From sequence record ON568341.1: a stretch of DNA of 64,000 bases; one strand, written 5' to 3'. Origin of the DNA: Escherichia phage UE-S1. The notes under the pieces are model-generated. The model searched no databases. It was not told the origin of the DNA and saw only the letters and a program-made list of their open reading frames with translations. Positions 3,482 to 54,523 of the stretch are shown here, in pieces (the stretch's first letter is position 1; the number at the start of each line of letters is the position of its first letter). The translations under genes were made by a program, and so were the position numbers.

Positions 3482-3534
3482 ACATATACCATTATATACT
3501 CTAAATAATATCATCAACCACAGGAGATATTATT

Positions 3535-6123: not shown

Positions 6124-6160
6124 ATTCGCAATTCGATAATATCCGATGCCATCATCGTCA

Positions 6161-6188
6161 AGAGAGACTTAATTGTCTCTTTTTTATT
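6161..6188 (+). terminator. intrinsic terminator-like hairpin plus T-run inside the ORF-free region
   Basis: AGAGAGAC ttaatt GTCTCT followed by TTTTT; could mark the 3' end of a small RNA. Confidence 0.45.
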
Positions 6189-6325
6189 ACCTTCATTCCC
6201 CTGCGGGGGGATGTAATAGTCCTCAACAAATCCCGTCAAGTTTTTAAAGTACATTATCATTTTTAGAAGGAACTAGTTTACGAAGTAAACGCAGTGACTT
6301 CTTGAGTTACGAGAGAACGAAGTGA

Positions 6326-6754: not shown

Positions 6755-6785
6755 ATACCATATAATAACTCTAAGGAGAGATTTT

Positions 6786-7226: not shown

Positions 7227-7233
7227 ACTATAT

Positions 7234-7263
7234 GGAGAGTCATAGTGACTCTCCTTTTCTTTT
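7234..7263 (+). terminator. intrinsic terminator
   Basis: GGAGAGTCA tag TGACTCTCC followed by TTTTCTTTT. Confidence 0.6.
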
Positions 7264-7272
7264 GGAGAATAT

Positions 7273-7626
7273 ATGAGTGACTACCGAGTAACATCTGGAC
7301 TAATGGCACGTCTTACTGAAGCAGTTCCTGAAGATGATTATGAAGCTATTTCAGATCGTCTTTTTGACGCAGATTCTAAACTCCATATTACATATGATGG
7401 TGCATTGATTTACAGTACTGATATTGATATCCCTAGCTATGAATTTGAGATTTCTTTTGGTAGTAAATTAACCACTGAAGAATTCGCTCGAAAATGTGAG
7501 CGTGAAGGGTTGTGTATTGATATTAGTTCAGTTCAGCCATATACATCACTGTGGTATGATGGTGCTGATAGTCCAATGTCTACTACATCTTTAAAGGATT
7601 TTCTAAATGCAAATCAAAAAGATTAA
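7273..7626 (+). CDS. hypothetical protein
   Basis: ORF track; RBS GGAGAA. Confidence 0.5.
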   Translation: MSDYRVTSGLMARLTEAVPEDDYEAISDRLFDADSKLHITYDGALIYSTDIDIPSYEFEISFGSKLTTEEFARKCEREGLCIDISSVQPYTSLWYDGADSPMSTTSLKDFLNANQKD

Positions 7627-39330: not shown

Positions 39331-40883
39331 TGAAGCAACTACAAGAACTATATCAAAAAATTCTAGATGAAGGCGTAGAAAGCGTTGACCGTACTGGCGT
39401 TGGCACAATCAAACTTATCGGTCAACAAATGCGTTTCGACCTTAAAGATGGTTTCCCAGCAGTGACGACAAAACGTCTAGCTTGGAAATCAATGACTTCA
39501 GAATTACTATGGTTTATTGAAGGCTCCCATGATGAACGTCGCCTTTGTGAAATTTTACATGGAACTCGTGATACAGAAAAGAAAACTATTTGGACAGATA
39601 ATTGTTTAGATCGTGCAAAAAACGATCCCAATCGATTTAATGGGGAAACGGTCGGTAATATGTATGGCATGAATTGGCGTTATCAACCATCTGAACCACA
39701 TAGCTATCAATATATTGAGAGGAAAACATATATTGATGATTATGTTGAAAATCATATTTGTCCAGAAATTACTGATACATTTAATGGAGTTAAAATTCAC
39801 AAATCTGCCAAATGTGGGGATTATGAAGTTATTGGTAAACATCATAATAATATAGTAATTCGTTTCATTAACACCGGTTCATATAAAATTGTACCAAGAA
39901 CTGCGAAAAATATTAAAGATTTTTTCCAACCATCAATTGAAGGGATTGGATATTTGGGTGGTGTAATTCCTGATACATTAACTGCAAAAAAATTATATCA
40001 AATTTGGAAAGATATGATTATTAGAGTGTATAACCCTAGAAAAAATCATTTATCATATGAAAATATAACTGTATGCAAACGTTGGCATAATTTTATGAAT
40101 TTTTACAATGATGCTTTTTCATTATGGGGATTTCAAGAATTTGTTGACAGTGGGTATTCTCATCAACTTGATAAAGATTATTACGGTTCAAACATTTATT
40201 CACCTGATACTTGTATTTTTATATCAGCATCATTAAATAAAACATTAAATGGTGGTGGACATGGGTTTAAAATTTATCTTTATAAAGGTAATGTATTTTA
40301 TTCTAGAACCGATTTACAAGAATCACGTGGTTTAACAAGAAAGGCCAATTTACCAGATGATGTAACAATATTAGAAGATAATGAAACACACGTAGTAAGA
40401 CCAAAAATATACATTGATCAACTACAGCGTTGTATTGATTTAATAAAGAACGATCCAGATTCAAGACGAATTGTTATTACATCATGGAATTCTAGAGATA
40501 TTGAAAATGCAGCATTAGGTATGTGTCACCCATTAGTACAATGGTTTGTTATTAATGGTAAGTTGTCATGTTCATTTTATATGCGTAGTTCTGATAGCTT
40601 CTTAGGCTTACCATTCAACATAGCATCATATGCACTACTTACCCACATGATAGCACAAATATGTTCTCTAGAGGTTGGAGAATTGATTTATACAGGTGGT
40701 GATTGTCACATTTATAAAAACCACGTTGAACAAGTAAAAGAACAACTACAGCGAAAACCACGTGAATTACCTGAATTGTGGCTTGATCCTACCATTACTA
40801 ATATTGAAGATTTCACAATGGATTCTTTCAAATTAGTAAATTACAACCCAATGCCAACAATTAAAGCACCGATGGCTGTATAA
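39330..40883 (+). CDS. td: thymidylate synthase (ThyA type) with ~240 aa in-frame insertion
   Basis: N-terminal 118 aa and C-terminal 156 aa align along bacterial ThyA (DRTGVGT, ELLWF, DPDSRRI, GLPFNIASYALL, active-site CHP region); the insert sits at the variable loop after the W-R motif. Confidence 0.85.
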   Translation: MKQLQELYQKILDEGVESVDRTGVGTIKLIGQQMRFDLKDGFPAVTTKRLAWKSMTSELLWFIEGSHDERRLCEILHGTRDTEKKTIWTDNCLDRAKNDPNRFNGETVGNMYGMNWRYQPSEPHSYQYIERKTYIDDYVENHICPEITDTFNGVKIHKSAKCGDYEVIGKHHNNIVIRFINTGSYKIVPRTAKNIKDFFQPSIEGIGYLGGVIPDTLTAKKLYQIWKDMIIRVYNPRKNHLSYENITVCKRWHNFMNFYNDAFSLWGFQEFVDSGYSHQLDKDYYGSNIYSPDTCIFISASLNKTLNGGGHGFKIYLYKGNVFYSRTDLQESRGLTRKANLPDDVTILEDNETHVVRPKIYIDQLQRCIDLIKNDPDSRRIVITSWNSRDIENAALGMCHPLVQWFVINGKLSCSFYMRSSDSFLGLPFNIASYALLTHMIAQICSLEVGELIYTGGDCHIYKNHVEQVKEQLQRKPRELPELWLDPTITNIEDFTMDSFKLVNYNPMPTIKAPMAV

Positions 40884-40890
40884 ACGAAAA

Positions 40891-40916
40891 GGGAGAACAT
40901 CAGTTCTCCCTTTTTT
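40891..40916. terminator. bidirectional intrinsic terminator between convergent genes
   Basis: GGGAGAAC atca GTTCTCCC flanked by an A-run upstream and TTTTTT downstream. Confidence 0.6.
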
Positions 40917-40917
40917 A

Positions 40918-43188
40918 TTATCTAATTGTTACCAACGTTCTTCCGTCGAAACGTACATCAGGAGTTGAAGGTATACTGAACACTACGTTAGTGCCGTTAA
41001 ACGTCACGCTATCGACCTCAACACGAGTATAGACACCTGGACTAACCTGTTCCTGTATCTCTGCTGTGACGATGTTTGAGGCTGTTACAGTAAGGGTGTA
41101 GTAGTTACCACTTAATACCCAAGATGAAATGGTAAATGCATCGGTTCTTACTGAACCTGAACCAATTGGAACCCATTGACCTTGAACTTTTTGCATTGAA
41201 GTACGCTCGGTATTGGAGTATGCAATCATACCATCAACACCAACAGAGTTATCAATAGTAGCTAGTACTGGTAATTGAATACCATATCTATTGAAACGTG
41301 TTCTAATAATTCCATTATCATAGATACTTACATCAGCATAATTCCCCATTGAAAGTTTCAAATCTGAATCAACTAATTGCATTGTACTTTGGTTAGTAGG
41401 GCTTTCTAAAGTAATTATTCCATTTGGTAATAAGCTTAAGTTTTTAAATTTATTCGAATTACCATTAAAATTTGTATTAGCGTTGAAAGTACTAGTTCCA
41501 TTAACTACTATTGTGTTTTCTGCGGCATCACCTAATATTGTATTTCGTTGAACAATCAAGTTACCATTAGCAGTAATATTAGTCGCTGTAGTATCACCAT
41601 TTAATTTTGTATTAGCGTTGAAAGTACTAGTAGCATTAACTACCAATGTGTTTGTTGCGTTGTCACCTAATATAGTATCACTTTGAACATTCAAATTACC
41701 ACTAGCAGTAATATTAGTCGCTGTGGTATCGCCATTTAATTTACTTGTACCATCAACTACGATATTACTATTAAATTTCGTATTAGATTTAAAAGTACTA
41801 GTAGCATTAACTACCAATGTGTTTGCTGCGGTGTCACCTAATATTGTATTGCTTTGAACATTCAAATTACCACTAGCAGTAATATTACTAGCTGAAGTAT
41901 CACCAATTAATCTACTTGTACCATCAACTACGATATTACCATGAAAATCGCTTTCACCGTTTTTAAATTCCACTTGTACCGAATACATAGAACTAAATGA
42001 AATTATATTACTACTTGCACTTATACCAACATTAGTATTAGTTGGGTTATCGAAGTGTAATATTGGAGTTAATGCTGGTGTTGTTGTTGTTTGATAGAGC
42101 GTTAATGATGAGTTGTTAATTCGCACACGTTCTGTTCCGGCAGTACTAAATCCAATAGCATCATCAGCAGGATGAAAAATACCAGTATTAGTATCAGACC
42201 ATTTTTCAGGATCATTACCAGGATTACTTGTTGGGTCGAATGGTTTATTATTAAATGCTATCGCTGGTGCGGAAGCACTCCCATATACAACACCAAAACG
42301 ACCAGACCCTATTGTACCATCATCATACATTGAATCGCCTGTTCTACGTAAACATTCAATTACAACATTATCTATGGAAGTTTGAACTGTACCAGCATTA
42401 GTTCTGAATTGACGATTATTTGCAATCATAATAGTGTTATCATATAACACAGAAGCTGCTGAAATACTTGTTCTTGATTGACGAAGGCGTATGTTTTTAT
42501 CTTCAGTAATAATAATCCAATCACCATCAGATAGTGCTGTTTGATTCATTGGCACACCGGAAGCAAACGGCTTAGTTAAATCATCATCAGTTGCTAAATT
42601 AACAAGTCCACTATGCCCAGTACTAGGGATGGAAGTTGAAATAATTCTTGCAAAAGCGTTTGTTACGAGCTTTGCACCAGATATATTTGGATTAGAATCA
42701 ACATAATATAAAATTTCAACCCAATTCCCCTGTCCAGTTGGGTTAGTTGGAGTAAATGTTACTGGGCTGGTTTTTGGTTTATTCGCTTCAAAATGTGCTT
42801 GGGCGGCATCCATAATACCACGCACAACATAATAATCACCACTAAGTGATGATGAGGGTGCAGGTAGTGGGCTTTGGGCTAACGGTGGGTCAATATCATC
42901 TGGAATCGGATTATATGTACCAACAAACTGTAAACCACTAGTTACTGAATCTGGTAATTGAGATGTAAGAAGTTTACCATTTGCATCTAAGTTAGCGAAA
43001 CGCCTGTATGCCATTGAACCATCTTCAAAATCCAGAACACCCTCGAACGATTTCCATGCTTTATTGTATCTAATCATCCCTGATCTTATTACATCAGCGG
43101 TTTCTTTTGATGGTGCTTTTGGTAATTCTAAAAAAGATTTACTATCAATAATTACACCACCATCACCTCTAATTCGATTTATACTCAT
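40918..43188 (-). CDS. tail fiber protein with tandem ~40 aa repeats
   Basis: 756 aa, Asn/Thr/Ser/Gly-rich; repeats NTLVVNATSTF-x-NTK-x-NGDTTATNITASGNLNVQ. Confidence 0.65.
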   Translation of the reverse strand: MSINRIRGDGGVIIDSKSFLELPKAPSKETADVIRSGMIRYNKAWKSFEGVLDFEDGSMAYRRFANLDANGKLLTSQLPDSVTSGLQFVGTYNPIPDDIDPPLAQSPLPAPSSSLSGDYYVVRGIMDAAQAHFEANKPKTSPVTFTPTNPTGQGNWVEILYYVDSNPNISGAKLVTNAFARIISTSIPSTGHSGLVNLATDDDLTKPFASGVPMNQTALSDGDWIIITEDKNIRLRQSRTSISAASVLYDNTIMIANNRQFRTNAGTVQTSIDNVVIECLRRTGDSMYDDGTIGSGRFGVVYGSASAPAIAFNNKPFDPTSNPGNDPEKWSDTNTGIFHPADDAIGFSTAGTERVRINNSSLTLYQTTTTPALTPILHFDNPTNTNVGISASSNIISFSSMYSVQVEFKNGESDFHGNIVVDGTSRLIGDTSASNITASGNLNVQSNTILGDTAANTLVVNATSTFKSNTKFNSNIVVDGTSKLNGDTTATNITASGNLNVQSDTILGDNATNTLVVNATSTFNANTKLNGDTTATNITANGNLIVQRNTILGDAAENTIVVNGTSTFNANTNFNGNSNKFKNLSLLPNGIITLESPTNQSTMQLVDSDLKLSMGNYADVSIYDNGIIRTRFNRYGIQLPVLATIDNSVGVDGMIAYSNTERTSMQKVQGQWVPIGSGSVRTDAFTISSWVLSGNYYTLTVTASNIVTAEIQEQVSPGVYTRVEVDSVTFNGTNVVFSIPSTPDVRFDGRTLVTIR
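41460..41940 (-). repeat. tandem ~120-bp coding repeats inside the tail fiber gene (approximate bounds)
   Basis: Near-identical DNA units visible around 41.46-41.94 kb matching the protein repeats. Confidence 0.5.
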
Positions 43189-43231
43189 TTAAATATTTCC
43201 TCAGAATAGATTATATATGATGTATTTATTT

Positions 43232-43267
43232 TAGATAAAAGAAAAGGCCAAGTATAGACTTGGCCTT
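43232..43267 (-). terminator. intrinsic terminator (minus strand)
   Basis: On the minus strand AGGCCAAGT ctat ACTTGGCCT followed by TTTTCTTTT, downstream of gene 43273..44052. Confidence 0.5.
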
Positions 43268-43272
43268 GAAAA

Positions 43273-44052
43273 TTATTTAGTACGTTCAGGTATATCAATA
43301 CCTTCATATACCCAACTCGCAGCTTGTTGTGCTTTATAAATTGCGTTCGGGTCGGAATCATCAACTGCATCAATTGCTTCACATTGTTTATCACAATCAG
43401 AAAATAGTTTTTCAACCATTGCTAATGATTCAGTATATAGCTGTGTCATTTCTTCTGCTGTTAGTTTTACTATAGCATCATCAAGAATAATAGTAACTTC
43501 ATGAGCACCAGACACAACTTGTGTATAATAATTAAGGAGCATTTGGCGACCAGCAAGATCTGTATTATAACGATGTTCTTTGAATACATAACCAGCATTA
43601 ATTCGATTAGTACGTTCTGATAAAGTTCGTTCTTTCAAATCTTTTTTCACATCAGAAATTGGTACATCGACATAATTGTATGTTTTAAGAACAGTCAATG
43701 CTTTATATTCATCAGTTGCATCTTCTAAAAATTCAACTACTGGTTGTTTTTCATCTTTTAATCGAACATATTCCAATGGTTGATCATTCTTATTTACATT
43801 ACCTACATTTTTATATTCTAACCACCAAAAACCTTCTTCTTTTCTTACCTCATCATTTGGTTCTACTGGAGAACCATCATAACTGGAAATACCATACAAA
43901 GTTCTAATATCGCTATAAAGATAGCGATAGGTCTGTGAATCATCAGGAATTGCACCTGGGCGTTCTTTAAGACCTTTAACACCGATTGGGTTTGAGATGA
44001 TACTACCCAATTCATAGTTTTCCTTTGAATTACCTTTCACATATGTGAACAT
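43273..44052 (-). CDS. hypothetical protein within the fiber cluster (possible fiber assembly or accessory protein)
   Basis: ORF track; position between two fiber genes. Confidence 0.45.
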   Translation of the reverse strand: MFTYVKGNSKENYELGSIISNPIGVKGLKERPGAIPDDSQTYRYLYSDIRTLYGISSYDGSPVEPNDEVRKEEGFWWLEYKNVGNVNKNDQPLEYVRLKDEKQPVVEFLEDATDEYKALTVLKTYNYVDVPISDVKKDLKERTLSERTNRINAGYVFKEHRYNTDLAGRQMLLNYYTQVVSGAHEVTIILDDAIVKLTAEEMTQLYTESLAMVEKLFSDCDKQCEAIDAVDDSDPNAIYKAQQAASWVYEGIDIPERTK

Positions 44053-44117
44053 ATAACTACCTCACTTGTTACGATGGTGTCACCCAAGTAAGGTGACACC
44101 TTTTATTATAATTATTA

Positions 44118-47100
44118 TTAAGCAGTACGTTGAGCAATAAACATATCTGCTACTGAACTTACACCATCATAAATTACTTGATAGATAGTTACAGAGTTTG
44201 CAGTTTTGTTAAGTGTTCCATCAACTACAGCATATGTACCATCGGTAGTAAAGTTTCTATTACCTGTTGTATCTTGTTTAACATAAATGTATACTGAAGA
44301 TGCTTTACCACCACCAATTAGACCAGTGATAGGTGCTAGTGTTGTATCTTGATCAAGTGTGATGAAGTATACGTTGCTAGTTCCGTCAGGTGTCCAAGTT
44401 CCAGAAGGTGCAATAACAGAAGAAGTTACTTGATTTGGTATAACATCATATTTTTTGGTAGTTACTTTTGTTGTAGTGAAGTCTGCGTTGGTTGTAGATA
44501 AATGACCTGTGACAGTTACACCCTTGTCAAATACTGCATTTTCTTTGAAAGAAGATGTTGCATTAACAGTTAATGTATCAGAATCAGAATCACCTAACAC
44601 AACACTACCATTTGCTGTCATTAAACCAGTAACAGTTAGTGTACCGCCGATTGTAGCTTCACCAGTTACAGATGCACTAGCAAGTGTAGCTGCACCAGAT
44701 GTTGTAATGGTGGTAACAGTAGCGTCTTCAAGTGTAATACTTGATGCAGTTAATTTTCCATCAACCGTTAGGCTACCAGTAACATTCGCACCAGCCGACA
44801 TAGTTACTGCTCCACCAAATGAACCAGTGGTCATGACTTCAAGGGTATTTCCTTTAAGTAATTTAGTTGCAGTTATATTTTCACCAGCAGTAATACTAGT
44901 ACCAGCAGCAACACCATTGGTTGCAGTTAATGATTTAACAGCCACGTCAGAGTTTGATTGGTTTAGTGTTGCGTTTAGAATGCCAGTTACAGTGAAGTCA
45001 CCGTTGTTAACTACGTTACCGTTGATTGTTAAGTTATTGTTTTTAGAACCAACATCACCGATGGTTGCTGATTTAGAAATCAATTCTGCACCAGATGTAA
45101 TGTTACCTGCGGCACTAATAGTGTTAGCTGCCTTAACTGCATAAGGTTCAATAGTTTGACCACTAACATCGATATCAGCATTAATACCACCATCAACACG
45201 TAAAGAACCAGCAATGTAAGTATTAGGGAAAATTTGAACAGTTTCTGAGTGTTCACCAACCTGTGTACCAATAATAACAGATGAACCAGTTTTTATTGAA
45301 CCTTCAGATGTTAGTGCTCCCACTGTTGCTGTGCCAGTAACGTTTAGTTTGCCACCAACTTTAGCGTTATTAGTTACTGTTAACGCTATATCATCACCAT
45401 TAAGAGTCATTGATGATGCAGATGCGTTTCCAGTAACATCGAGTGTACCACCAATAGTTGCATTGCCATCAGAATGTAGAGTTTGTGCAACAGAAAGACT
45501 GTTTGCAACCACATCAGTACTGGTCAAATCCAATGCACCCGGTGTTAATGTACCAGTAATGTTAACATTATTACCAAATGTTGCTGCCCCAGTAACATCT
45601 AGGGTAGAGCTAAATGTACCAGAAGTTGCAGAGATTGAACCAGATTCTAGTGAACCAACAGTAGTTTTTCCAGTTACACCTAGTGTACCACCAACTGTTC
45701 CATTTGTTGTAACTTCTAATGTTCCAGTACTTAGATCTTTCGCTGTAACTTTGTCAGATGCGTTAATAGTTGTTGTTGTAACACCACCACTTAGGGTGCT
45801 TGCACCAGTAACACTGAGTGTTTTAGCTGCACTAACGCTGTTTACGTTAAGATCTGCACCAGATAGGTCTAAACCACCTTCAGGAATAAATTTACCCTTA
45901 ACGGTTAGTTGTTGAACAGAACTGTCACCAGTAACATCCAGTGTAGAAGCAGTTAGACCACCATTCAGGCTTGCTTCCCCAGTAACATCTAGGGTAGTTG
46001 TTACAGTCGCACTGTTAAGAGTGGAGTTACCGGAAATATTAGCACTTGGTGCAGTGATTGAACCTTTATCAACTTGTACATCACCAGAAACAACTTTAAT
46101 ACCACCAGCATCAACTGTTAGTTTTTCGGCAGTGTTCAAAGTACTTGAAATTGTTGTTGCACCAGTTAAGGTTGTGGTTCCTGCAACACTCATGTTTCCA
46201 GAGATAGATGGATTACCTGTAATGTTACCAGTAGTTAGAACCAAGTCAGTACCTACAGTAGTGGAACCAGTACTTTCTAATGTTACACCGACAATATTTG
46301 CAGATTTAAGGTCAATGGAGCCATCAACAGTCAAGTTACCATGTACTGTTGCATCACCGAGTGAATTTAATGATTTCACAGAAACATCAGTTTTACTAAG
46401 GTCAATTACACCAGCAGTAAGTGTTCCAGATACTGCCAAATCACCAGTAATTGCTGTATTTTTAGTAATAGATACAGTTTCTGATGCTGACGTAATTGAG
46501 CCAACAGTAAGTGCACCACCAATGGTTGCATTGTTAGTTACAGTTAACGCTGTTTCTTCACCAGATAGTGTTAAAGAAATACCATTCATTTCACCAGTAA
46601 TATTTGCAGATGCCGCAGAAATATCGCCAGCAACTACCGCATTTGTTGCGTTTAGAGTTGTTGTAGTAATTTCAGTACTTTTTACTTTAGGAAGTGCGTT
46701 GATACCATCTTTACTATTAACTGTAATAATACCAGAACTTGTTAGCGATTTAACAGAAACATCTGCACCACTTAAGTTAACTGTTCCAGAAACAACTAGA
46801 TCGCCACCAATATTAGCACCTTCTGTTGTAGTGATTGATTTTGCATTAACTTCAGTTTGGCTCAAATCAATTGTACCAGGTGATACAGTTCCAGAAACAG
46901 TAAGATTACCAGTAATGGTGGTATCATTAGAAATAGATACACCATCATCATTACTAATTGTTGGGGTTTCAATAGTAACAGCTTTAACTTTACCTGAAGA
47001 AGTCATATCAGCAACAGTTGATGTACCAGTAACCTTTAGATTAGTAATATTTGCAGTAGTTGAACCAAGTGTAGTAATAGTACCATCAGTACTTTCTAGT

Positions 47101-49601
47101 TTAGGAAGAACACTAGCAATAGAAGATTCTTTACTAACAATTGCACCAGTGCTGGTTAGTGATTTTGCAGTTACATCAGCATTAGTAAGGTCAACTGTTC
47201 CATTAACGGTTAGATCTCCCCCAACTGTTGCACCAGCAGTAGTAGTAATTGAATTAGCATTAACATCTGCTTTAGTTAGATCAATTGAACCTGGAATGAT
47301 TGCACCAGAGACAGTTAGATCACCAGTTACTTTTGTATTATTAGCAATTGTAATTCCATGTTCATTGGAAATATTAGGAGTTACTAATGAAGGAGTAGTA
47401 GTTACGCCAGATACATTTAATGTTGTACCAACTAATACACTTGATAGATTAGATTGTCCAGTTACGTGAAGTTCATCTGCATTAACAGTTGTGATAGTTG
47501 CAGTTGTACTTTTAAGTACTGGGAGTACGTTTTCGGACACACTATCATTGCTTTTAATAACACCAGAAGTAGTAAGTGATTTAACATTAAGTTCGGCTTC
47601 TGATAAATCAAAAGAACCTTTAACTACGAGGTCACCACCTACTGTTGCACCAGCAGTAGTAGTAATAGATTTTGCATTAAGTTCGGCTGCACTTAAATCT
47701 AGTGAACCAACAGTTAAGCTACCAGTGATATCAACATTTTCAGTAAAGGTAGTCTCCCCACTAATCGTTGGGGCAGTTAAACTCGTCGCAGTGATATTAG
47801 TACCTTTGATTGTTTCACCACTTAATGTACCACTAGCAGTAATAGTCGGTGCGGTAACTTCTGTAGATGCACTAATTGTTGGTGCGGAAACCGAAGTTGT
47901 ACCAGTAATAACACCAGAACTTACTGATCCAGCAGATAATGCACCAGAAAGAGTTGCAGTTGTACCAGTAATATCACCAGTGACAGTTAGTGCTCCACCA
48001 ACAGTAGTATCACCTGTACTTTCCAAAGTTGCACCTTTGACATGTTCGGCTGCCACAACTGATTTTGGTGTTAAATCTTGTCCACTAACGTCAACGGTTA
48101 AACCAGTTACTTTACCAGTGAAATCAACATCATTAAGAATTGCCTTACCACCAACTTGTAGGAATGGTGTACTTGGGTCTTGTGTTTCGTTACCTGTAAT
48201 TGTTAGATAATCTAATTTGTTTAGACCATTACCAGTAATACCATATGTTGATAGTGATGCATTGCCAAATGTTGCAGTTTTAAGAACTTTCAATGTAGCT
48301 GGAGAAACCAACTCAGATTGAACTTCATTCGGTAAAATAACAGTTGGTCGTTGTTCTGGTGTAGTATATGCAAAACCGAGTTTAACCGCTGGGTCTTGAC
48401 TATTTTTACCTAAACTGATAGATTTGAAAGTTGCAGTACCGTTTAAACCAGTAATATTAGAACCTAGTGTAACACCACCCACCAATGAAGTAGTTCCTGA
48501 TACATTCAATGTGGTTGCATTAATATCATCCAACTGGAATTCGCCACCAAGAAGACCAGAAACATTAATGTTATTAAAATTAGCTGTGCCAGTACTTTCA
48601 ATATTTGGGATAGTTGCAGTACCAGTAACTTCAAAATCAGCAACTTTAGTTTTACCTTTTTTTACTTCTAGAAGTGGTGTGTCTGGTGATTGAGTATCGT
48701 TACCAGAAACAGTTAGATAATCTAATTTGTTTAGACCATTACCAGTAATGCCATAGGTTGGCAATGATGCATTACCAAATGTTGCAGATGTCAAAACAGT
48801 CAATTTTGCTGGTGACATTAGTTCAGATTGAATTTCGTTTTGTAGAATTACAGTAGGACGCTTATCTGGGGCACTGTAAGGAAAGCTTAGTCTAAAGGTT
48901 TGTGATTCAGAGTTAGAGCCAATACGGATGTCTTTAAATGTAGCAGTACTATTAATACCTGTTACATTAGCACCAAAAGTTACAGCACCTTTTTGGTTAG
49001 ATGCACCAGTGACGTTCAATGTTTCAGCATTCAAATCAGAAAGATTAAACTCACCGCCTAGTGTACCATTAATGTTTACATCGTTGAATTCAGCAGTACC
49101 AGTGCTTGTAATATCAGTTGTAGACATAGTTGTGATTTCTGCGGAATTAGCAGTAATTTTATCAAAAGCAGCAGTTGTACCAACATCAGCAGTTAAGTTA
49201 CCTTTAAGTGTTGTTACTTCATCAACTTCTAAGCTTTTTACTTTAGTTTCTTGTAGTGCTGTTGACCCAGCAGTTTGTGTAAAATCACCACCAACTGACA
49301 CAACACCGTTAAATGTAGCATTTGCATTGATTGTTGCTGTATCAGAACCACCATCTTCACTACCGATAGTAGTGTTACCTTTAACATCAAGACCACCACT
49401 TAGTGTTGCTTTTCCAGCAACATCTAATGTAGATGTAATATTGGCAGTTTCTGTTTCAATGGCAGTAAAAGATGCATTTGCAAAAGATATACTACCATTT
49501 ACAGTTAGGTTATTCTTGAATACAGCATTCCCTTTGACTAAAAGATCCTTACCAACCGTGCCAGCACCAGTAATATCTAAGTCAGTTTTTATTGAGTACA
49601 T
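44118..49601 (-). CDS. giant repeat-rich tail fiber / adhesin-like protein (1827 aa)
   Basis: Very long Thr/Gly/Ser/Asn/Val-rich ORF with recurring blocks such as GSIDLTKADVNANSITTTAGATVGGDL; RBS GGAGGG before the ATG. Confidence 0.65.
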   Translation of the reverse strand: MYSIKTDLDITGAGTVGKDLLVKGNAVFKNNLTVNGSISFANASFTAIETETANITSTLDVAGKATLSGGLDVKGNTTIGSEDGGSDTATINANATFNGVVSVGGDFTQTAGSTALQETKVKSLEVDEVTTLKGNLTADVGTTAAFDKITANSAEITTMSTTDITSTGTAEFNDVNINGTLGGEFNLSDLNAETLNVTGASNQKGAVTFGANVTGINSTATFKDIRIGSNSESQTFRLSFPYSAPDKRPTVILQNEIQSELMSPAKLTVLTSATFGNASLPTYGITGNGLNKLDYLTVSGNDTQSPDTPLLEVKKGKTKVADFEVTGTATIPNIESTGTANFNNINVSGLLGGEFQLDDINATTLNVSGTTSLVGGVTLGSNITGLNGTATFKSISLGKNSQDPAVKLGFAYTTPEQRPTVILPNEVQSELVSPATLKVLKTATFGNASLSTYGITGNGLNKLDYLTITGNETQDPSTPFLQVGGKAILNDVDFTGKVTGLTVDVSGQDLTPKSVVAAEHVKGATLESTGDTTVGGALTVTGDITGTTATLSGALSAGSVSSGVITGTTSVSAPTISASTEVTAPTITASGTLSGETIKGTNITATSLTAPTISGETTFTENVDITGSLTVGSLDLSAAELNAKSITTTAGATVGGDLVVKGSFDLSEAELNVKSLTTSGVIKSNDSVSENVLPVLKSTTATITTVNADELHVTGQSNLSSVLVGTTLNVSGVTTTPSLVTPNISNEHGITIANNTKVTGDLTVSGAIIPGSIDLTKADVNANSITTTAGATVGGDLTVNGTVDLTNADVTAKSLTSTGAIVSKESSIASVLPKLESTDGTITTLGSTTANITNLKVTGTSTVADMTSSGKVKAVTIETPTISNDDGVSISNDTTITGNLTVSGTVSPGTIDLSQTEVNAKSITTTEGANIGGDLVVSGTVNLSGADVSVKSLTSSGIITVNSKDGINALPKVKSTEITTTTLNATNAVVAGDISAASANITGEMNGISLTLSGEETALTVTNNATIGGALTVGSITSASETVSITKNTAITGDLAVSGTLTAGVIDLSKTDVSVKSLNSLGDATVHGNLTVDGSIDLKSANIVGVTLESTGSTTVGTDLVLTTGNITGNPSISGNMSVAGTTTLTGATTISSTLNTAEKLTVDAGGIKVVSGDVQVDKGSITAPSANISGNSTLNSATVTTTLDVTGEASLNGGLTASTLDVTGDSSVQQLTVKGKFIPEGGLDLSGADLNVNSVSAAKTLSVTGASTLSGGVTTTTINASDKVTAKDLSTGTLEVTTNGTVGGTLGVTGKTTVGSLESGSISATSGTFSSTLDVTGAATFGNNVNITGTLTPGALDLTSTDVVANSLSVAQTLHSDGNATIGGTLDVTGNASASSMTLNGDDIALTVTNNAKVGGKLNVTGTATVGALTSEGSIKTGSSVIIGTQVGEHSETVQIFPNTYIAGSLRVDGGINADIDVSGQTIEPYAVKAANTISAAGNITSGAELISKSATIGDVGSKNNNLTINGNVVNNGDFTVTGILNATLNQSNSDVAVKSLTATNGVAAGTSITAGENITATKLLKGNTLEVMTTGSFGGAVTMSAGANVTGSLTVDGKLTASSITLEDATVTTITTSGAATLASASVTGEATIGGTLTVTGLMTANGSVVLGDSDSDTLTVNATSSFKENAVFDKGVTVTGHLSTTNADFTTTKVTTKKYDVIPNQVTSSVIAPSGTWTPDGTSNVYFITLDQDTTLAPITGLIGGGKASSVYIYVKQDTTGNRNFTTDGTYAVVDGTLNKTANSVTIYQVIYDGVSSVADMFIAQRTA

Positions 49602-49673
49602 TTATACCCTCCATGATAACCTTGTTAATATGTATATATTTAGTTTTATTCTTCTGTTAACTAATAATTTGTC

Positions 49674-49709
49674 AAAATAAAAAACCAGACTTATTGATAA
49701 CAAGTCTGG
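49674..49709 (-). terminator. intrinsic terminator (minus strand)
   Basis: On the minus strand CCAGACTT guuaucaau AAGTCTGG followed by TTTTTTATTTT, downstream of gene 49718..50617. Confidence 0.55.
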
Positions 49710-49717
49710 ATTCATTT

Positions 49718-50617
49718 TTACTTACCAGAGATAACAATCTTCCCACTGAATGTAACATCAGAAGTAAAGATTACGTCACCAGTATTGCTAATTTGTGTGC
49801 CAGTTACTACCAATTCAAATGGTGATGTCGAAACACTACCAGGTGTCTTATTTGCATAAATCGAAACATACAAATTTTCTGGTGATTGTTTGTGTTCAGA
49901 TGCTGGAATTGTGATGGTGAACTCATCTTTATTAGAAATCCAATCATCTTGGTTTATCAATTTACTATAAGGTACTGTCATTGTTGTTGCTCCTATAATG
50001 TTTACTATAACATTTATATAATCCGTAATTTTGCCAATTGCATCTATTGTAATATCACCAGCACCGTTCACTACTACAGATGTTTGAAATACTGAATCCA
50101 ATGTCCTACTACCAGGAGAATCACCATGTAGTTGTATCATGATATCAGGCCCACGCCCATGTACAGATGCTGGAATGGTGTATGTATAATGGTCGGTAGT
50201 ATCTGGTACTAATGTAAATGCAGATACTGGTACAGTTTCAGTTGTTACATATGAACTATCAGTTTCATGTGAACTACCTTTGAATGATTTCCAAATACCA
50301 AGGTCTTTAATATAAATTTGAAGAACATTAGTTTCATCAACTAAAAAATACACATCACCATCTGACCCAATAGATTCATCCGGGGCACTGGTCCCACGCA
50401 AAATACCAGAACTACCAGTGCCACTATGTGCGTTTAGATATCCTAACGTAACTAGATGTGTGTTAGCGGTCGGGTCACCTGCTGAAATTGGAAGAAGTTT
50501 TGTTCCTGAGTAGTTTTGTATTTGCACGACACTACCATTTGTGGTAATCTGTGCACCATTCTTCCCAAGAATGAAGGATTTCTTCATTGTTCCTTCTAAA
50601 TTAGAAAAAACTGCCAT
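49718..50617 (-). CDS. tail fiber/spike protein sharing an N-terminal module with the upstream gene
   Basis: N-terminus MAVFSNLEGTMKKSFILGKNGAQ nearly identical to that of gene 50634..52775; RBS AAGGAG. Confidence 0.55.
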   Translation of the reverse strand: MAVFSNLEGTMKKSFILGKNGAQITTNGSVVQIQNYSGTKLLPISAGDPTANTHLVTLGYLNAHSGTGSSGILRGTSAPDESIGSDGDVYFLVDETNVLQIYIKDLGIWKSFKGSSHETDSSYVTTETVPVSAFTLVPDTTDHYTYTIPASVHGRGPDIMIQLHGDSPGSRTLDSVFQTSVVVNGAGDITIDAIGKITDYINVIVNIIGATTMTVPYSKLINQDDWISNKDEFTITIPASEHKQSPENLYVSIYANKTPGSVSTSPFELVVTGTQISNTGDVIFTSDVTFSGKIVISGK

Positions 50618-50633
50618 TTTAATTTAATCTCCT

Positions 50634-52775
50634 TTATGGTAGGGTTATATACGTTACTGGCTGGGCAGCTTTTAATGATGCACCAGCGGCAGTTGCTGTT
50701 ATGATGGGATCTGCAATATCAATTCTATATACATTATTAACAACATATACTGCACGAGTTATATACGTTTTCAAATCATCACCATTTTCCCCAGCACCAG
50801 ATATAATGATCTCAGTACCAGCCGCTTTTGCATATTGGTTATCACCCCATGACACACCCAATGCTTCTATATACGTTTGTCCTACTGTCGTTTGTCTAAT
50901 TGTGTCATATTTTCCAAAAAATGAACCACCCACTGTTACAATATATTTTCCACCAGATTTTTTATGTATAATCGTCCCTTCTGGGAAGTATCTTCCTCCA
51001 GGAAAAGTATCATATGGAATATAATATTGCTCAACTACAGGTATTAGTACTGGACCACGGTGACCAGTACCGTCAATTGCAGTTGTTACTTTGAAATTAT
51101 TAGATGATTGATCGATTCTATCTACGTACATTTTAGAAAAACTATATTTTGAAACATTACAATCATCTTGAACAACACAGTTAGTCCAATTAGTATAAGT
51201 ATATTTAGAGCGAGTATACATACCCCCACCTTCACCTTCAGTGGAAAGGTGTTGTCCTATGACATCTAATTCTTTTGTTCTGATATCACTAAATTTAGAT
51301 GAAGATGGTAGACCACGCCAAAGAATTTTAGAACAAGTAATATTACTTAATTCTGTACTATTCAACCAATTATCCGATCCAGAAGTATAAACGATTACGG
51401 AAGACTCTGGTATATAGAGATTGGATATTTTAAAGTTTCTAGGTGGACCAGCAAATCGACCACCAGTTACACCCCAGTTAATAGATACCATACGGTTTGT
51501 GACTGTAGGATCATTAAGTAAATGTCCGGTTAAACCATCAATTACAAACTCTTTTGAACCATAAGTTATTACACCAGCAGTTGTTAACCCAGTACCAACG
51601 GAAATTAAAGATGATGGGTACACCTCATTATCAAGTATTTTGAAATCCATTCCCAATTCGACATGGATACATTGTCTAACATTATAAAGTCTATTATTCT
51701 TAATAACAAAGTTTCTAACATATTGTGTATCAGGGGCATCCAAATCATAAGGACCAGACCCAGCAACACCAATACCAATACCCCAGTTTGAAAGCGGGAT
51801 TGGTGCATCAGAACCATCAACATTTTCAATTATATTACCTTCAATTACAAAACCATCAGGATAATGTGAGTTAATAACGTTCAATTCAATTGCATCCCCG
51901 TAGATATCATGAATGTGGTTGTATGAATAACGACCAACCTTCATTTTCTCACCAGTTCCTTGTTGGAGAACGCCATATTTACATTTAGTCATTTCATTAA
52001 AGCAAAAATCTATTGTGCCAGATTGGGTCATACCTTGCATTAAGAACGCAGCAGTACTGGTAATGTTAATAAATTTATTAAAATAAAATTTACCATCCCC
52101 GCCAAAGAATTTCAAATAACAGCCAGTAAGTGTGGTGAATTGAATTTGTGAATTAATAACGGATATCATAGTTCCACCATTACCCGTAATAGTGCCACCA
52201 AACCAAGTTACATCTTCCAAATATACTGCTTTTTTGATACGATAATTACCACCTGCTTGAATTTGTATTTTATTTTCTTTTGCATAAGTTGCACACAAAT
52301 TTACAGCTTCAGTGTCATCGGTTTCCCCATCACCTTTCGCACCAAATTCTTCTGGTGTTATATAGAACTGTGCTTGTTGAACTGTACCGCCAGTAACAAG
52401 GCCAATGAAATCACCACCATTTTTACTTGATAGTGCTTTTTTATTAATGTAGAGTGATTTAATCCAAGTACCATTAGTTTTTACGAAGATATCAACAATA
52501 CCATCTTCATCAATTTGAAAATAAGTATTATTATTTTTTCCAATATCATCTGACGGTGATTGAACACCAAATAATGCATTTGGATTATCTTCAAGGTATC
52601 TAATATTAACTGCTGAATCTTGGTCTGATGGTGTTCCTACTTTTAGTGGTAGAAACTTTTCACCTAGATAATCTTTTATCGATACGGAATCATTGACGAA
52701 ATTTATCGAAGCACCATTTTTACCCAATATCATTTTTGGTTTCATGGTCCCTTCAAAATTAGAAAATACTGCCAT
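50634..52775 (-). CDS. tailspike/fiber protein with shared N-terminal module and large divergent C-terminal domain
   Basis: Start reassigned to internal Met (MAVFSNFEGTMK) preceded by AGGGGGG; the track's 44 aa N-terminal extension lacks an RBS; ~713 aa. Confidence 0.55.
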   Translation of the reverse strand: MAVFSNFEGTMKPKMILGKNGASINFVNDSVSIKDYLGEKFLPLKVGTPSDQDSAVNIRYLEDNPNALFGVQSPSDDIGKNNNTYFQIDEDGIVDIFVKTNGTWIKSLYINKKALSSKNGGDFIGLVTGGTVQQAQFYITPEEFGAKGDGETDDTEAVNLCATYAKENKIQIQAGGNYRIKKAVYLEDVTWFGGTITGNGGTMISVINSQIQFTTLTGCYLKFFGGDGKFYFNKFINITSTAAFLMQGMTQSGTIDFCFNEMTKCKYGVLQQGTGEKMKVGRYSYNHIHDIYGDAIELNVINSHYPDGFVIEGNIIENVDGSDAPIPLSNWGIGIGVAGSGPYDLDAPDTQYVRNFVIKNNRLYNVRQCIHVELGMDFKILDNEVYPSSLISVGTGLTTAGVITYGSKEFVIDGLTGHLLNDPTVTNRMVSINWGVTGGRFAGPPRNFKISNLYIPESSVIVYTSGSDNWLNSTELSNITCSKILWRGLPSSSKFSDIRTKELDVIGQHLSTEGEGGGMYTRSKYTYTNWTNCVVQDDCNVSKYSFSKMYVDRIDQSSNNFKVTTAIDGTGHRGPVLIPVVEQYYIPYDTFPGGRYFPEGTIIHKKSGGKYIVTVGGSFFGKYDTIRQTTVGQTYIEALGVSWGDNQYAKAAGTEIIISGAGENGDDLKTYITRAVYVVNNVYRIDIADPIITATAAGASLKAAQPVTYITLP

Positions 52776-52788
52776 TATGACACCCCCC

Positions 52789-53916
52789 TTAAATATTATC
52801 TTGAATAGGTTGGACCGGAGCTTGCCATGAAAGAGTACAAATAATTTCCATTTTACCATAAGGACTATTATTAACTGAATCATTGAATACACATGAAATA
52901 ATTTCATCTACATCTGAAACTTCATGATTTGTTTCATTAACAATAAAACGCATCTGGTGATTAATATCAAAGTAGGATGTTGGTGCAATGACAGTACCAC
53001 CAATATTTTCGTTTGCTTCACCACCGAAACGAACAAACATATCGGTTACTGGAATGGAGTAAGGTTGAAGAATATTTACATCAATATTTGAAACCACATA
53101 ACCAGCAGGACAAGTTCCTATAACCAATAGTGCGTTTGTCCATGAATGGTCAATGATATTTCTTATAGAAATTGTATCTTTACCTGGTGCACCCGGTTCA
53201 CCTTGCTTACCTTGAATACCTTGTGGACCTTCTTTACCACGGAATAAAATACCACTACTCCATTCTTTTGATGGTGGGGTGGTAGTTGTTACTTCATCTA
53301 CATAATAAAGTTTACCATCAGTGTTGTTATAGAAACAATAATCAACTGGGAGGTTTTCTATGCTTGGAAATTGATCACCACTACCGTCAATATGGAAACG
53401 ACCACGTGGACCTTGCTCGCCACGGAAAGGAATACCATCACTCCATGTTGCTGTTACTTTTTGATAAAAATATAATTTACCATCTTGTGTATTGTAAAAT
53501 GTATAGTTATCAAAAAGACCAGAACTTGGAAAATTAGTTCCCGCACTATCGATATGAAAAGGCTTACCAGCTTCACCAGTATCACCTTTACCAAATTCTA
53601 CACTAATCCATGTACTGGTTTGTTCTTGTGCATCATTTGATTTAAAATACAAAGTACTTGTGTTATTTGCCAAGCTAAGGTAGCACCAACCAAGTGGTTC
53701 ACCAACTTTGAATTTATCAGACGGAACTTCAAAACCAATCTCGTTTGGATAAAAGTTCTTACCGTTTTCACCATTTTGTCCTACAACAAGACCTAAATCT
53801 TGAATTGTATTATCGGTATAGGTTACAATTAAATGACCAGCAGCATTAATAACTAGACTTTTGATGCCGGAGTTATTACATGAACCACTGGACCCATTGT
53901 TAAATGAAATTGTCAT
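52789..53916 (-). CDS. fiber-like protein with collagen-like Gly-X-Y repeats
   Basis: GEQGPRGRF and GKEGPQGIQGKQGEPGAPGKD triplet runs. Confidence 0.55.
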   Translation of the reverse strand: MTISFNNGSSGSCNNSGIKSLVINAAGHLIVTYTDNTIQDLGLVVGQNGENGKNFYPNEIGFEVPSDKFKVGEPLGWCYLSLANNTSTLYFKSNDAQEQTSTWISVEFGKGDTGEAGKPFHIDSAGTNFPSSGLFDNYTFYNTQDGKLYFYQKVTATWSDGIPFRGEQGPRGRFHIDGSGDQFPSIENLPVDYCFYNNTDGKLYYVDEVTTTTPPSKEWSSGILFRGKEGPQGIQGKQGEPGAPGKDTISIRNIIDHSWTNALLVIGTCPAGYVVSNIDVNILQPYSIPVTDMFVRFGGEANENIGGTVIAPTSYFDINHQMRFIVNETNHEVSDVDEIISCVFNDSVNNSPYGKMEIICTLSWQAPVQPIQDNI

Positions 53917-53953
53917 ATTATTTCCCTTTTATGAGTTAATGTCATATACCAAT

Positions 53954-53961
53954 ATTTATCA
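53954..53961 (-). promoter_or_regulatory. candidate late-promoter-like motif GATAAATA (minus strand)
   Basis: 38 nt upstream of the minus-strand ATG at 53916 in the divergent intergenic region. Confidence 0.25.
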
Positions 53962-53986
53962 GTACAAAATACATTTCGTCGCCATT

Positions 53987-53994
53987 AATAAATA
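53987..53994 (+). promoter_or_regulatory. candidate late-promoter-like motif AATAAATA
   Basis: 32 nt upstream of the plus-strand ATG at 54026. Confidence 0.25.
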
Positions 53995-54025
53995 AATGAA
54001 AGTTCACTACTAAAAGGGCTTAACA

Positions 54026-54523
54026 ATGGCATTAAGATCAAAAAACTTTCTTTTTAAAAGAAAAACAAAAGATGGTTCATGGCAAGATTTTCCTGAATCC
54101 GATAGTTGGTATCCAGCTAATTTGGATTATCTTTGGAATGAACAAACATTACCACTGGCAAGTGGTGGCTACTATGGTAGCACTACTGGGTTGCATACCA
54201 TTTCATTTACACTACGTAATTTTATTGGTAGAATTTATGTATTAGCAACATTAGCTAGTAATCCGACTGACGATGATTGGTTCCCAATTAAATTCACTGA
54301 AAGTTGTAAATATTATCTTGAATTTACTGATATGGTTATTTTAAATCCAAACGGCGGTGATTTAATTAGACAACAAGGAACTACCGGAACATTTGCAGAA
54401 ACAGTGACAGGCAACTTTACATATATTAAAGTTGGTATTGATCGTGATTATATTAGTAAGTACCCGTCTGATGTACAAAAAAGTTTAGCGGGTAAGTTAG
54501 AACAAATTTTAATTAACTACTAA
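54026..54523 (+). CDS. hypothetical protein (likely virion-associated)
   Basis: ORF track; inside the structural block. Confidence 0.5.
   Translation: MALRSKNFLFKRKTKDGSWQDFPESDSWYPANLDYLWNEQTLPLASGGYYGSTTGLHTISFTLRNFIGRIYVLATLASNPTDDDWFPIKFTESCKYYLEFTDMVILNPNGGDLIRQQGTTGTFAETVTGNFTYIKVGIDRDYISKYPSDVQKSLAGKLEQILINY

Follow-up and report, generated by a model that had tools for sequence, protein, structure and literature searches.

The fiber gene and its neighborhood

The window, a 64,000-nt stretch of DNA from Escherichia phage UE-S1 (ON568341.1), derives from an Asteriusvirus-type jumbo coliphage of the 121Q/PBECO4/phAPEC6 group. Its minus strand carries an ATG-initiated ORF of 5484 nt (44118..49601) encoding a fiber protein of 1827 aa, a CDS assignment backed by ortholog matches and dN/dS. 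A Shine-Dalgarno sequence, GGAGGG, is located at 49607..49612 on the same strand, 5 nt upstream of the ATG at 49601. Further upstream (49648..49709, minus strand), a terminator-like hairpin (49709-49685) stands after the preceding 299-aa gene and is followed by a promoter-like TTGACA-16-AAGAAT element (49675-49648), both being identified as consensus matches only.

The gene is embedded in a host-recognition block. On its upstream side, a depolymerase of 713 aa resembling WcaM and pectate lyases (its true start is likely at 52775) and a virion protein of 299 aa occupy 49718..52775 on the minus strand, as judged from domain and PHROG matches; the two products have a common N-terminal adaptor (MAVFSN.EGTMK...), and the depolymerase is a gene separate from the adjacent fiber gene. 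The block continues downstream on this strand with the genes of a DUF4376 protein (259 aa) and of a beta-repeat protein of 756 aa (40918..44052).

The fiber protein is rich in Thr (17.8%), Gly (11.3%), Ser (10.8%), Val (9.4%), Ala (8.6%), Leu (8.2%), and Asn (7.1%), while Tyr (0.9%), His (0.4%), and Gln (1.6%) are scarce. It matches PHROG 4549, "tail fiber protein", with an E-value of 1.5e-223. Mass spectrometry of virions identified two orthologous products, namely phAPEC6 gp256 (180.4 kDa, 15 peptides; PMC7247149) and CBB_226 (10 peptides; PMC5259590). The preliminary description of the locus as a giant, repeat-rich fiber gene with a Thr/Gly/Ser/Asn/Val-rich product is therefore borne out by the ORF, its composition, the PHROG match, virion proteomics of orthologs, and the homology, presented below, to the fiber of Pectobacterium phage phiTE, which cryo-EM has located on the particle. 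Its list of possible roles (whisker, long tail fiber, or capsule-penetrating adhesin) holds as far as a fiber is concerned; a capsule-penetrating enzymatic role does not, since Pfam and NCBIfam searches found no catalytic domain in the protein. NCBIfam returned no match, and Pfam searches with the whole protein and seven segments gave only sub-threshold Bactofilin hits and noise.

The gene is an ordinary one and has been described in related phages before; orthologs labelled tail fiber or long tail fiber are present in more than 30 genomes of jumbo phages. Colinear orthologs of 1834, 1841, and 2129 aa are 88, 84, and 84% identical to the fiber protein, respectively, and the family includes phAPEC6 gp256, 121Q gp571, and ph0011 WAE77162; the ortholog of the closest isolate diverges by 12%. 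Comparison with orthologs gave a sense-frame dN/dS of 0.15-0.17, with 160, 83, and 514 substitutions at codon positions 1, 2, and 3, a pattern that demonstrates purifying selection on a conserved gene.

Modular organization and length variation of the fiber protein

Internal protein repeats were detected by BLAST of protein chunks against the protein itself. The N-terminal region conserved across the family (residues 1-160; 49122..49601, minus strand) carries the invariant MYSIKTDL... and is beta-rich according to its invariant columns, an AF2 model, and the phiTE alignment. It is followed by two copies of a 170-aa module (residues 163-502; 48096..49115, minus strand), which BLAST and DNA comparison place at 64% amino acid and 71% nucleotide identity (residues 163-300 versus 333-470, E = 2.5e-59). 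The shaft continues with three to four ~138-aa modules, each with an internal 30-aa sub-repeat (residues 651-1103; 46293..47651, minus strand); here, residues 651-799 and 790-937 are 49% identical (E = 1e-35), and residues 801-948 match 939-1103 at E = 1e-17. Two ~113-aa modules (residues 1207-1436; 45294..45983, minus strand) complete the set, with residues 1207-1323 matching 1320-1436 at E = 3e-11. A strand period of 6 residues runs through the shaft repeats. The C-terminal PF26209 (Phage_phiTE_241_C) region, presumably the distal tip, spans residues ~1645-1827 (44121..44669, minus strand), as delimited by the phiTE alignment and the AF2 model.

Self-comparison, which had been proposed as a check for repeats, thus yielded highly significant matches (E from 2.5e-59 to 3e-11), and the recurring blocks of ~50 aa reported earlier proved to be units of ~170, ~138, and ~113 aa plus the 30-aa sub-repeat. 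The copy number of these units varies among relatives. The 170-aa module is present twice in the fiber protein, three times in its CRJP21 ortholog, and once in the phiTE long tail fiber (LTF; chain residues 181-352), and the ~113-aa module occurs twice in the fiber protein and three times in CRJP21. Accordingly, the insertions of 170 and 112 aa that distinguish the CRJP21 ortholog correspond to whole modules. Across the family, length ranges from 1049 to 2129 aa, with both termini conserved throughout. The protein comparisons show a shaft built from duplicated modules whose number differs between relatives, and module gain and loss offers a simple picture of fiber-length evolution. Separately, we considered the 170-aa module as a docking site, with one copy for each protein carrying the MAVFSN adaptor; this idea is unsupported, as the CRJP21 locus encodes no more than two such proteins although its fiber has three modules.

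At the DNA level, the repeat copies are about 60-80% identical, with a maximum of roughly 76%. The ~138-aa modules form a DNA repeat family with a spacing of 90/324; the best module pair reaches 71% over 326 nt, and other pairs are almost devoid of DNA similarity. Exact internal repeats do not exceed 38 nt, and TRF found no tandem arrays in the gene. The expectation that the gene would be prone to recombination and length variation consequently stands in part: length does vary on an evolutionary scale (CRJP21 modules; 1049-2129 aa), but the DNA copies are too diverged for an active recombination hot spot. The same divergence, together with the short longest exact repeat, makes repeat collapse in the assembly unlikely. 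Repeat richness and the different module numbers of relatives could be taken as signs that the assembly misrepresents the length or repeat number, with repeats collapsed or expanded. Against this, the gene is colinear with that of the independently sequenced ph0011 (indels of only 6 + 1 aa) and with that of phAPEC6 (indels of 6 + 7 + 1 aa), and a near-identical 1827-aa copy (P0001) resides on an independent 344-kb ENA scaffold. We consider such an artefact very improbable.

Antisense reading frames

Six ORFs of 89-482 aa are found on the plus strand opposite the fiber gene (44509-45144, 45331-45915, 46021-47469, 47491-48210, 48424-48693, and 48928-49680; overall 44509..49680). All of them lie in one frame, whose third codon positions coincide with those of the sense frame; it contains stop-free runs of up to 518 codons and has 23 stops compared with 135-240 in the other frames. 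A stop in this frame requires a sense Tyr codon, or a His or Gln codon preceded by a codon ending in T. Indeed, 22 of the 23 stops fall in the coding part, each arising from a sense Tyr, His, or Gln codon, and the remaining one arises from the gene's own stop codon. The openness of the frame is thus explained by the scarcity of these three residues in the fiber protein.

The preliminary description regarded these ORFs as antisense artefacts caused by the codon structure of the repeats. The first part of this statement is upheld. Shuffles of the sequence predict 29.2 ± 3.6 and 26.4 ± 3.2 antisense stops, so the observed number corresponds to the expectation from composition; every ORF is broken in at least one ortholog, with 1-8 extra stops in one or more of them (2, 5, and 6 for the longest); and none of the ORFs matches a PHROG. 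The proposed cause, by contrast, has to be replaced by amino acid composition, because codon-order shuffling destroys the repeats and yet retains the same paucity of antisense stops.

That one or more of the plus-strand ORFs, for example 46021-47469 (482 aa), represents a real overlapping Pro/Val/Thr-rich gene is extremely unlikely. The idea draws on the sheer length of the ORFs, on a dN/dS of 0.28-0.30 in their frame, i.e., below 1, and on the GenBank record of PBECO4, where three such antisense ORFs are annotated as CDSs. However, the ratio is ~1.8-fold above that of the sense frame, and a value below 1 is expected when third positions are shared with the sense frame; the ORFs are confined to the very frame that composition predicts to be open; and the PBECO4 calls were made only where the real sense gene runs off the end of the record and is unannotated. 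Fiber genes poor in Tyr, His, and Gln codons give rise to kilobase-long antisense ORFs in a predictable frame, an annotation hazard exemplified by at least one GenBank record, that of PBECO4. The "FliK" CDSs of phage CMSTMSU were also considered as antisense artefacts of this type and rejected, since they lie on the sense strand and are pieces of the fiber gene, in a record marked UNVERIFIED.

Relationship to the phiTE long tail fiber

The only relative of the fiber protein in the PDB is chain 9cuy_g, the phiTE LTF (gp241), which the single sequence matched at E = 4.5e-29 and profiles matched at 4.1e-63 and 3.1e-38. HMMER aligned the two proteins in four stretches. At the C-terminus, residues 1645-1824 align with chain residues 614-792, reaching the last residue (profile E = 4.1e-63), and a profile of residues 1-520 matches chain residues 181-352 (E = 3.1e-38). 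In agreement with this, PF26209 (Phage_phiTE_241_C) is on record for the near-identical P0001 protein. The sequence evidence assigns the fiber gene to the phiTE gp241 fiber family.

The phiTE LTF is a trimer with an extended beta-helix (793 aa, predicted length 512 Å), in which residues 14-171 form a helical-bundle/globular baseplate anchor, engaging in a "rip-cord" bundle with the sheath initiator (PMC11972413). HMMER with the profile of residues 1-520 gave no alignment before chain residue ~181, i.e., no similarity to this anchor. AF2 monomer modeling of residues 1-520 was poor (mean pLDDT 50); within residues 1-160, short beta-strands and no helix were predicted (pLDDT 60-77). The last ~110 residues formed a confident beta-domain (pLDDT 85-94), whereas the shaft part of the C-terminal model reached only 50-70. 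Many phage tail fibers end in the same fold as this C-terminal domain (105 BFVD matches at E ≤ 0.001).

Some database records carry the labels "YadA domain protein" and "autotransporter". YadA head, stalk, and anchor Pfam domains were absent from the whole protein and its segments at E ≤ 1, and Bactofilin (PF04519) scored at best 26.3, 24.8, and 18.0 bits on three shaft segments, below its gathering threshold of 27.9. A weak match (E = 2.8e-7) to one bacterial protein carrying YadA/autotransporter domains was also recorded.

Proposed architecture and attachment of the fiber

Taken as a whole, the locus most probably encodes a very long virion fiber of the Asteriusvirus type, an enlarged version of the phiTE gp241-type LTF, with the plus-strand ORFs being non-genes. 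We propose that the protein would form a homotrimeric beta-helical rod attached to the particle by its family-conserved N-terminal ~160 residues. The number of modules would set its reach, which may amount to ~120 nm at the rise per residue of the phiTE trimer (793 aa and 512 Å translate into ~118 nm for 1827 aa) or to ~50 nm if each chain formed its own solenoid. Initial, reversible binding to the cell surface may then be the task of the C-terminal beta-domain, at the distal end of the rod, alongside the neighboring depolymerase. As for the site of attachment, the baseplate periphery is favored, given the location of the gene among baseplate, depolymerase, and fiber genes and the baseplate-bound position of the solved relative. 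Still, the N-terminus is not homologous to the phiTE anchor, so the mode of attachment is not transferable from phiTE and baseplate attachment does not follow from that homology. Moreover, a ~120-nm baseplate fiber fits poorly with micrographs of relatives, which show only short (~29 nm) baseplate fibers.

In a rival reading, the protein is not a baseplate fiber but would form the ~120-nm hairs (whiskers) found on the tail sheath, and perhaps also on the capsid, of hairy RaK2-like phages, with its own N-terminal domain bound to sheath or collar decoration proteins. In CBB, the tail hairs measure 119 ± 10 nm, compared with just 28.6 nm for the baseplate fibers, and no gene product is assigned to the hairs (PMC5259590); phAPEC6 (PMC7247149) and fEgEco12, both described as hairy with short baseplate fibers, carry the gene. 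The length scaled from phiTE is in line with such hairs, as is an N-terminus unlike the phiTE baseplate anchor. The full-length gene is, furthermore, absent among the Klebsiella RaK2-type matches listed, the CBB paper states that there is no homolog in RaK2 (PMC5259590), and the phiKp24 paper makes no mention of whiskers. On the other hand, GAP32 carries the gene and is not reported to be hairy, and the CBB authors expected hair genes to be absent from GAP32 (PMC5259590). The CBB ortholog, at only ~1400 aa, scales to ~91 nm, and a solenoid per chain, to which both the monomer model and the matches of bactofilin type point, would shorten the fiber of UE-S1 to ~50 nm. Other big virion proteins equally lack an assignment, e.g., the 382-kDa phAPEC6 gp245 (PMC7247149), and the gene is placed in a baseplate/receptor-binding block. 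Our search found no post-2020 literature assigning a whisker protein in Asteriusvirus or CBB-like phages. We rate the hair assignment as possible but doubtful, and the same holds for its extension, according to which the fiber would be the hair protein of CBB, phAPEC6, and fEgEco12, with module number setting hair length and the phiTE_241_C tip serving long-range reversible cell capture. The protein can reasonably be put forward as a candidate for the unassigned hairs of these jumbo phages, and the question is a modest one.

A further interpretation is suggested by the label "long tail fiber proximal subunit", found in many records. The protein would then be a proximal half-fiber like T4 gp34, its C-terminus joined via a hinge protein to a distal half-fiber encoded downstream (259-aa and 756-aa genes); a big fiber gene, a small gene, and a second fiber-like gene on one strand do loosely recall T4 genes 34-37. 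Although T4 fiber chains are present in the PDB, no similarity to gp34, gp37, or any other of them emerged with the single sequence (E ≤ 10) or with profiles (E ≤ 1), and no Tequatrovirus appeared among the 71 tblastn records listed, a tally confined to genera with jumbo and ~145-kb phages. Pfam, PHROG, and NCBIfam searches gave no gp35/36/37 signal in the two downstream genes, and the 259-aa protein carries DUF4376, a domain that accompanies tail-fiber assembly proteins. The phiTE fiber, which consists of a single protein, and many short phage fibers end in the same C-terminal domain, and this points to a free tip and not to a joint. A gp34-like role is consequently improbable. Since the searches revealed no resemblance to the T4 gp34 sequence, the label itself is unsupported; it spreads through jumbo-phage records, whereas the gene is a member of the phiTE gp241 fiber family.

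Comparison with known fibers

The closest counterparts of the UE-S1 fiber are the Asteriusvirus orthologs, representing the same gene at the same locus with 84-88% identity. Orthologs of CBB, GAP32, and Serratia phage BF, named "long tail fiber proximal subunit", retain 31-35% identity, the same locus, and conserved termini. Among RaK2-like jumbo phages, modules gained or lost account for the different shaft lengths of the orthologs (~1400-2129 aa).

T4 gp34 is likewise a very large myovirus fiber protein and the source of the common annotation, but no sequence similarity is detectable, and the C-terminus of the UE-S1 protein looks like a terminal tip domain and not like an end that binds a hinge. 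The likeness to single-chain beta-solenoid adhesins and bactofilin (tapirins, EtpA, autotransporter passengers, BacA) comes from the part of the monomer model with pLDDT 50-70, in a protein that is probably a trimer. The helical-bundle anchor of phiTE gp241 (PDB 9CUY/9MJN, chain g) is unrelated to the all-beta N-terminus of the UE-S1 protein. Beyond the anchor, the two fibers have in common the C-terminal domain, a 170-aa module, and a beta-repeat shaft, the UE-S1 protein being 2.3 times longer, with two such modules and many more shaft modules.

A conserved giant gene in Asteriusvirus phages

The 1827-aa ORF of the preliminary description was recovered with exactly the same coordinates and length at 44118..49601, on the minus strand of the window. 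It starts with ATG and is preceded on the same strand by a Shine–Dalgarno sequence (GGAGGG) 5 nt upstream and, further upstream, by a terminator-like hairpin and a promoter-like site. The product is rich in Thr, Gly, Ser, Val, Ala, Leu and Asn and very low in Tyr (16 residues), His (7) and Gln (29). Megablast matched the gene to 33 phage records, all ~320–385-kb Escherichia or Salmonella jumbo phages of Asteriusvirus, including 121Q, PBECO4, phAPEC6 and ph0011; the full gene was covered in 15 of them, at 82–86% nucleotide identity. The locus is syntenic between the window and ph0011, phAPEC6 and CRJP21, and a 344-kb ENA metagenome scaffold carries a near-identical protein (P0001) of 1827 aa with the same neighbours and two mismatches in the last 188 residues. 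With a sense-frame dN/dS of 0.15–0.17 against orthologs, the gene is conserved and under purifying selection.

Homology to the phiTE long tail fiber

Reading the gene as a fiber or adhesin proved essentially right: it is an ortholog of a jumbo-phage fiber gene already annotated and confirmed by proteomics. The protein matches PHROG 4549 ‘tail fiber protein’ (E = 1.5e-223); its phAPEC6 ortholog, gp256 (180.4 kDa), yielded 15 unique peptides from purified virions (PMC7247149), and the CBB ortholog CBB_226 yielded 10 peptides by virion proteomics (PMC5259590). Only one relative was found among all PDB sequences, with E = 4.5e-29 for the single sequence: chain g of 9CUY/9MJN, a protein of 793 aa from the flagellotropic myophage phiTE that is named ‘putative tail fiber protein’. 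Homolog profiles aligned the C-terminal 388 residues with chain g 457–793 (E = 4.1e-63) and the N-terminal 520 residues with 181–352 (E = 3.1e-38). From the beta-repeat sequence in this alignment, we infer that chain g is the phiTE long tail fiber and not the coiled-coil short fiber. The phiTE long tail fiber is described as a trimer, in which an N-terminal helical bundle and globular domain (residues 14–171) bind the baseplate wedge and sheath initiator and are followed by a highly extended β-helix; the whole fiber is predicted to be 512 Å long (PMC11972413). In the gene table of the ENA copy, Pfam PF26209 ‘Phage_phiTE_241_C’ is entered for P0001, so the family is already curated.

Among PDB sequences, neither the single sequence nor profiles revealed similarity to T4 gp34 or other T4 fiber chains, and no T4-like phages are among the tblastn matches listed for the protein. 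The label ‘long tail fiber proximal subunit’ is unsupported, given this lack of T4 fiber similarity and a C-terminus that resembles the end of a fiber and not a joint. Nor did Pfam searches with the whole protein and its segments bear out the YadA and autotransporter names given in some records.

Conserved ends and a modular shaft

Chunked self-BLAST resolved a 170-aa module in two copies (residues 163–300 vs 333–470, 64% identity, E = 2.5e-59), a ~138-aa module in three to four copies (651–1103) and a ~113-aa module in two (1207–1436), with fainter repeat echoes throughout residues 480–1700. The sequence also shows a sub-repeat of 30 aa and a hydrophobic period of 6/12/18 residues. Among 30 database homologs, total lengths span 1049–2120 aa, yet ~150 residues at the start and ~190 at the end are conserved; the protein thus combines conserved ends with a modular shaft of variable length. 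In an AlphaFold2 monomer built on a 20-sequence alignment, the last ~110 residues are confident (pLDDT 85–94), residues ~1460–1550 reach about 80, and the shaft is weakly modelled, as a solenoid (pLDDT 50–70); the N-terminal model was too poor for use. Foldseek returned no significant neighbour of the C-terminal fold in the PDB. Many predicted viral tail fibers end C-terminally in this fold, with 105 BFVD matches at E ≤ 0.001; among them are fibers of phiTE, KpS8 and Ro1 and, from uncultured phages, collagen-like fibers. By this comparison the C-terminal part resembles the tip of a fiber.

The ph0011 (1834 aa, 88% identity) and phAPEC6 (1841 aa, 84%) orthologs align colinearly. The CRJP21 protein (2129 aa) carries two inserts, one after residue 475 that is exactly 170 aa long and one of 112 aa after residue 1303, amounting to one additional copy each of two different modules; module gain and loss has therefore shaped the gene during evolution. 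Of the proposed proneness to recombination and length variation, the latter holds at the level of modules. Frequent homologous recombination is unlikely, as is the collapse or misassembly of repeats raised in the preliminary description, because the DNA copies have diverged, TRF found nothing relevant in the gene and exact internal repeats reach 38 nt at most. The DNA repeat families are 60–80% identical; the 170-aa module pair retains 71% identity over 326 nt, and the remaining pairs are barely alignable.

Antisense ORFs reflect amino-acid composition

Six plus-strand ORFs (89–482 aa; 44509–49680) were found by ORF scan opposite the fiber gene, all in a single frame, offset 1 from 44118. Each codon in this frame is the complement of sense position 2, position 1 and the preceding codon’s position 3, such that a stop requires a sense TAY (Tyr) after a T- or C-ending codon, or CAN (His/Gln) after a T-ending codon. 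Accordingly, 22 of its 23 stops derive from sense Tyr, His or Gln codons and one from the fiber gene’s own stop codon; the other four alternative frames contain 135–240. By the genetic code, Thr maps to Val, Gly to Pro, Val to Thr and Ala to Ala, the first three explaining the Pro/Val/Thr-rich translations. The expected number of stops was 29.2 ± 3.6 after codon-order shuffling, which keeps composition and destroys repeats, and 26.4 ± 3.2 after synonymous-codon resampling; the frame shows no additional stop avoidance. Since shuffles without repeats are equally stop-poor, the ORFs are artefacts, as had been suspected, but of composition and not of the repeats to which they had been attributed.

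Every antisense ORF is broken in at least one of three compared orthologs (46021–47469, for example, contains 2 stops in ph0011, 5 in phAPEC6 and 6 in CRJP21), and none of the six matches a PHROG. The ORF-bearing frame, whose third positions coincide with sense third positions, has a dN/dS of 0.28–0.30, compared with 0.15–0.17 for the sense frame and 1.5–2.4 for the other two antisense frames. In PBECO4 (KC295538.1), the fiber gene is unannotated because it continues past the end of the linear record, with 1641 codons open up to that point, and three annotated ‘hypothetical proteins’, AGC35229–31 (2931–3674, 5955–6245 and 6561–7607 of locus L004, minus in locus orientation), are artefacts in the same antisense frame. 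The fiber region of Escherichia phage CMSTMSU (L005; MH494197.1, UNVERIFIED_ORG) is split into many sense-strand CDSs, all named ‘flagellar hook-length control protein FliK’, which looks like low-complexity mis-annotation on a frameshifted assembly.

Neighbouring genes and sequence features

Near the fiber gene, real tandem DNA repetition is confined to three 171-nt (57-aa) units (79–89% identity; 41457–41933, minus) inside a 756-aa gene (40918–43188); these units are a more plausible site of copy-number change than the fiber gene itself. The 756-aa protein matches PHROG 14293 (unknown function), with a Bactofilin match below threshold. In CRJP21 (L003 13289–16708) this downstream cassette is swapped: gp301 (654 aa) has the same N-terminus (MSINRIRGDGG...) and a different C-terminal part, and gp302 (455 aa) starts with MYNIRTDI..., an echo of the giant fiber N-terminus. 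By sequence, this suggests receptor-binding domains exchangeable on conserved adaptors.

The 757-aa ORF (50634–52907, minus) probably starts at 52775 (MAVFSNFEGTM...), giving 713 aa as annotated in relatives; the product is WcaM/pectate-lyase-like (‘colanic acid-degrading’). Over its first ~60 residues it shares 51% identity with the N-terminus of the adjoining 299-aa virion protein (49718–50617, minus), so the two have a common adaptor. In a 375-aa protein (52789–53916, minus) there is a short collagen-like Gly-X-Y run (GPQGIQGKQGEPGAPGKD). MS coverage of the phAPEC6 ortholog, gp253, was high (65.6%), so this protein may be fibrous and abundant in the virion.

Terminator-like hairpins are enriched at 40700–54200 (18 vs 6.2 ± 2.7 in shuffles), several exactly intergenic (49709–49685, 43267–43244, 40886–40915). 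The gap separating the fiber stop codon from the following gene holds a perfect 9-bp GC-rich hairpin (44076–44100) without a sense-direction T-run. Across the window (1–64000), GC skew stays positive until ~40 kb and is mostly negative between 40 and 54 kb, a change coinciding with the coding-strand switch at the fiber/receptor-binding block.

Proposed role and relation to known tail appendages

With orthologs present in virions and homology to a structurally located long tail fiber, the protein is envisaged as a homotrimeric β-helical rod, whose N-terminal ~160 residues would fix it to the particle and whose C-terminal phiTE_241_C domain would form the distal tip contacting the host. It may work with the adjacent WcaM/pectate-lyase-like depolymerase and other fiber-like proteins of the block. 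Scaled from the phiTE model at 0.65 Å per residue, the fiber would measure ~118 nm, or ~49 nm if each chain formed its own solenoid of 18 residues per turn, the rise of a β-helix being 4.8 Å per turn.

A reasonable though less likely alternative is that the protein builds the whisker-like tail hairs of hairy jumbo phages. The only baseplate fibers visible in micrographs of relatives are short ones; those of CBB measure 28.6 nm, and its tail ‘hairs’, whose gene products were never assigned, ~119 nm (PMC5259590), close to the ~118 nm scaled here, although this length argument hinges on the model and there are further giant virion proteins that equally lack an assignment. The full-length gene occurs in ~350-kb Escherichia, Salmonella, Serratia, Erwinia, Yersinia, Cronobacter, Pectobacterium and Xanthomonas jumbo phages. 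RaK2 is stated to be without a homolog (PMC5259590), and the Klebsiella phages among the matches listed are of ~145 kb and have only half a module in common with the gene, which would fit the hair assignment; against it, GAP32 has the gene and hairs are not reported for it. The giant protein is homologous to the phiTE long tail fiber, but by alignment and profile its N-terminus is unrelated to that fiber’s baseplate anchor, which would also fit the hair assignment.
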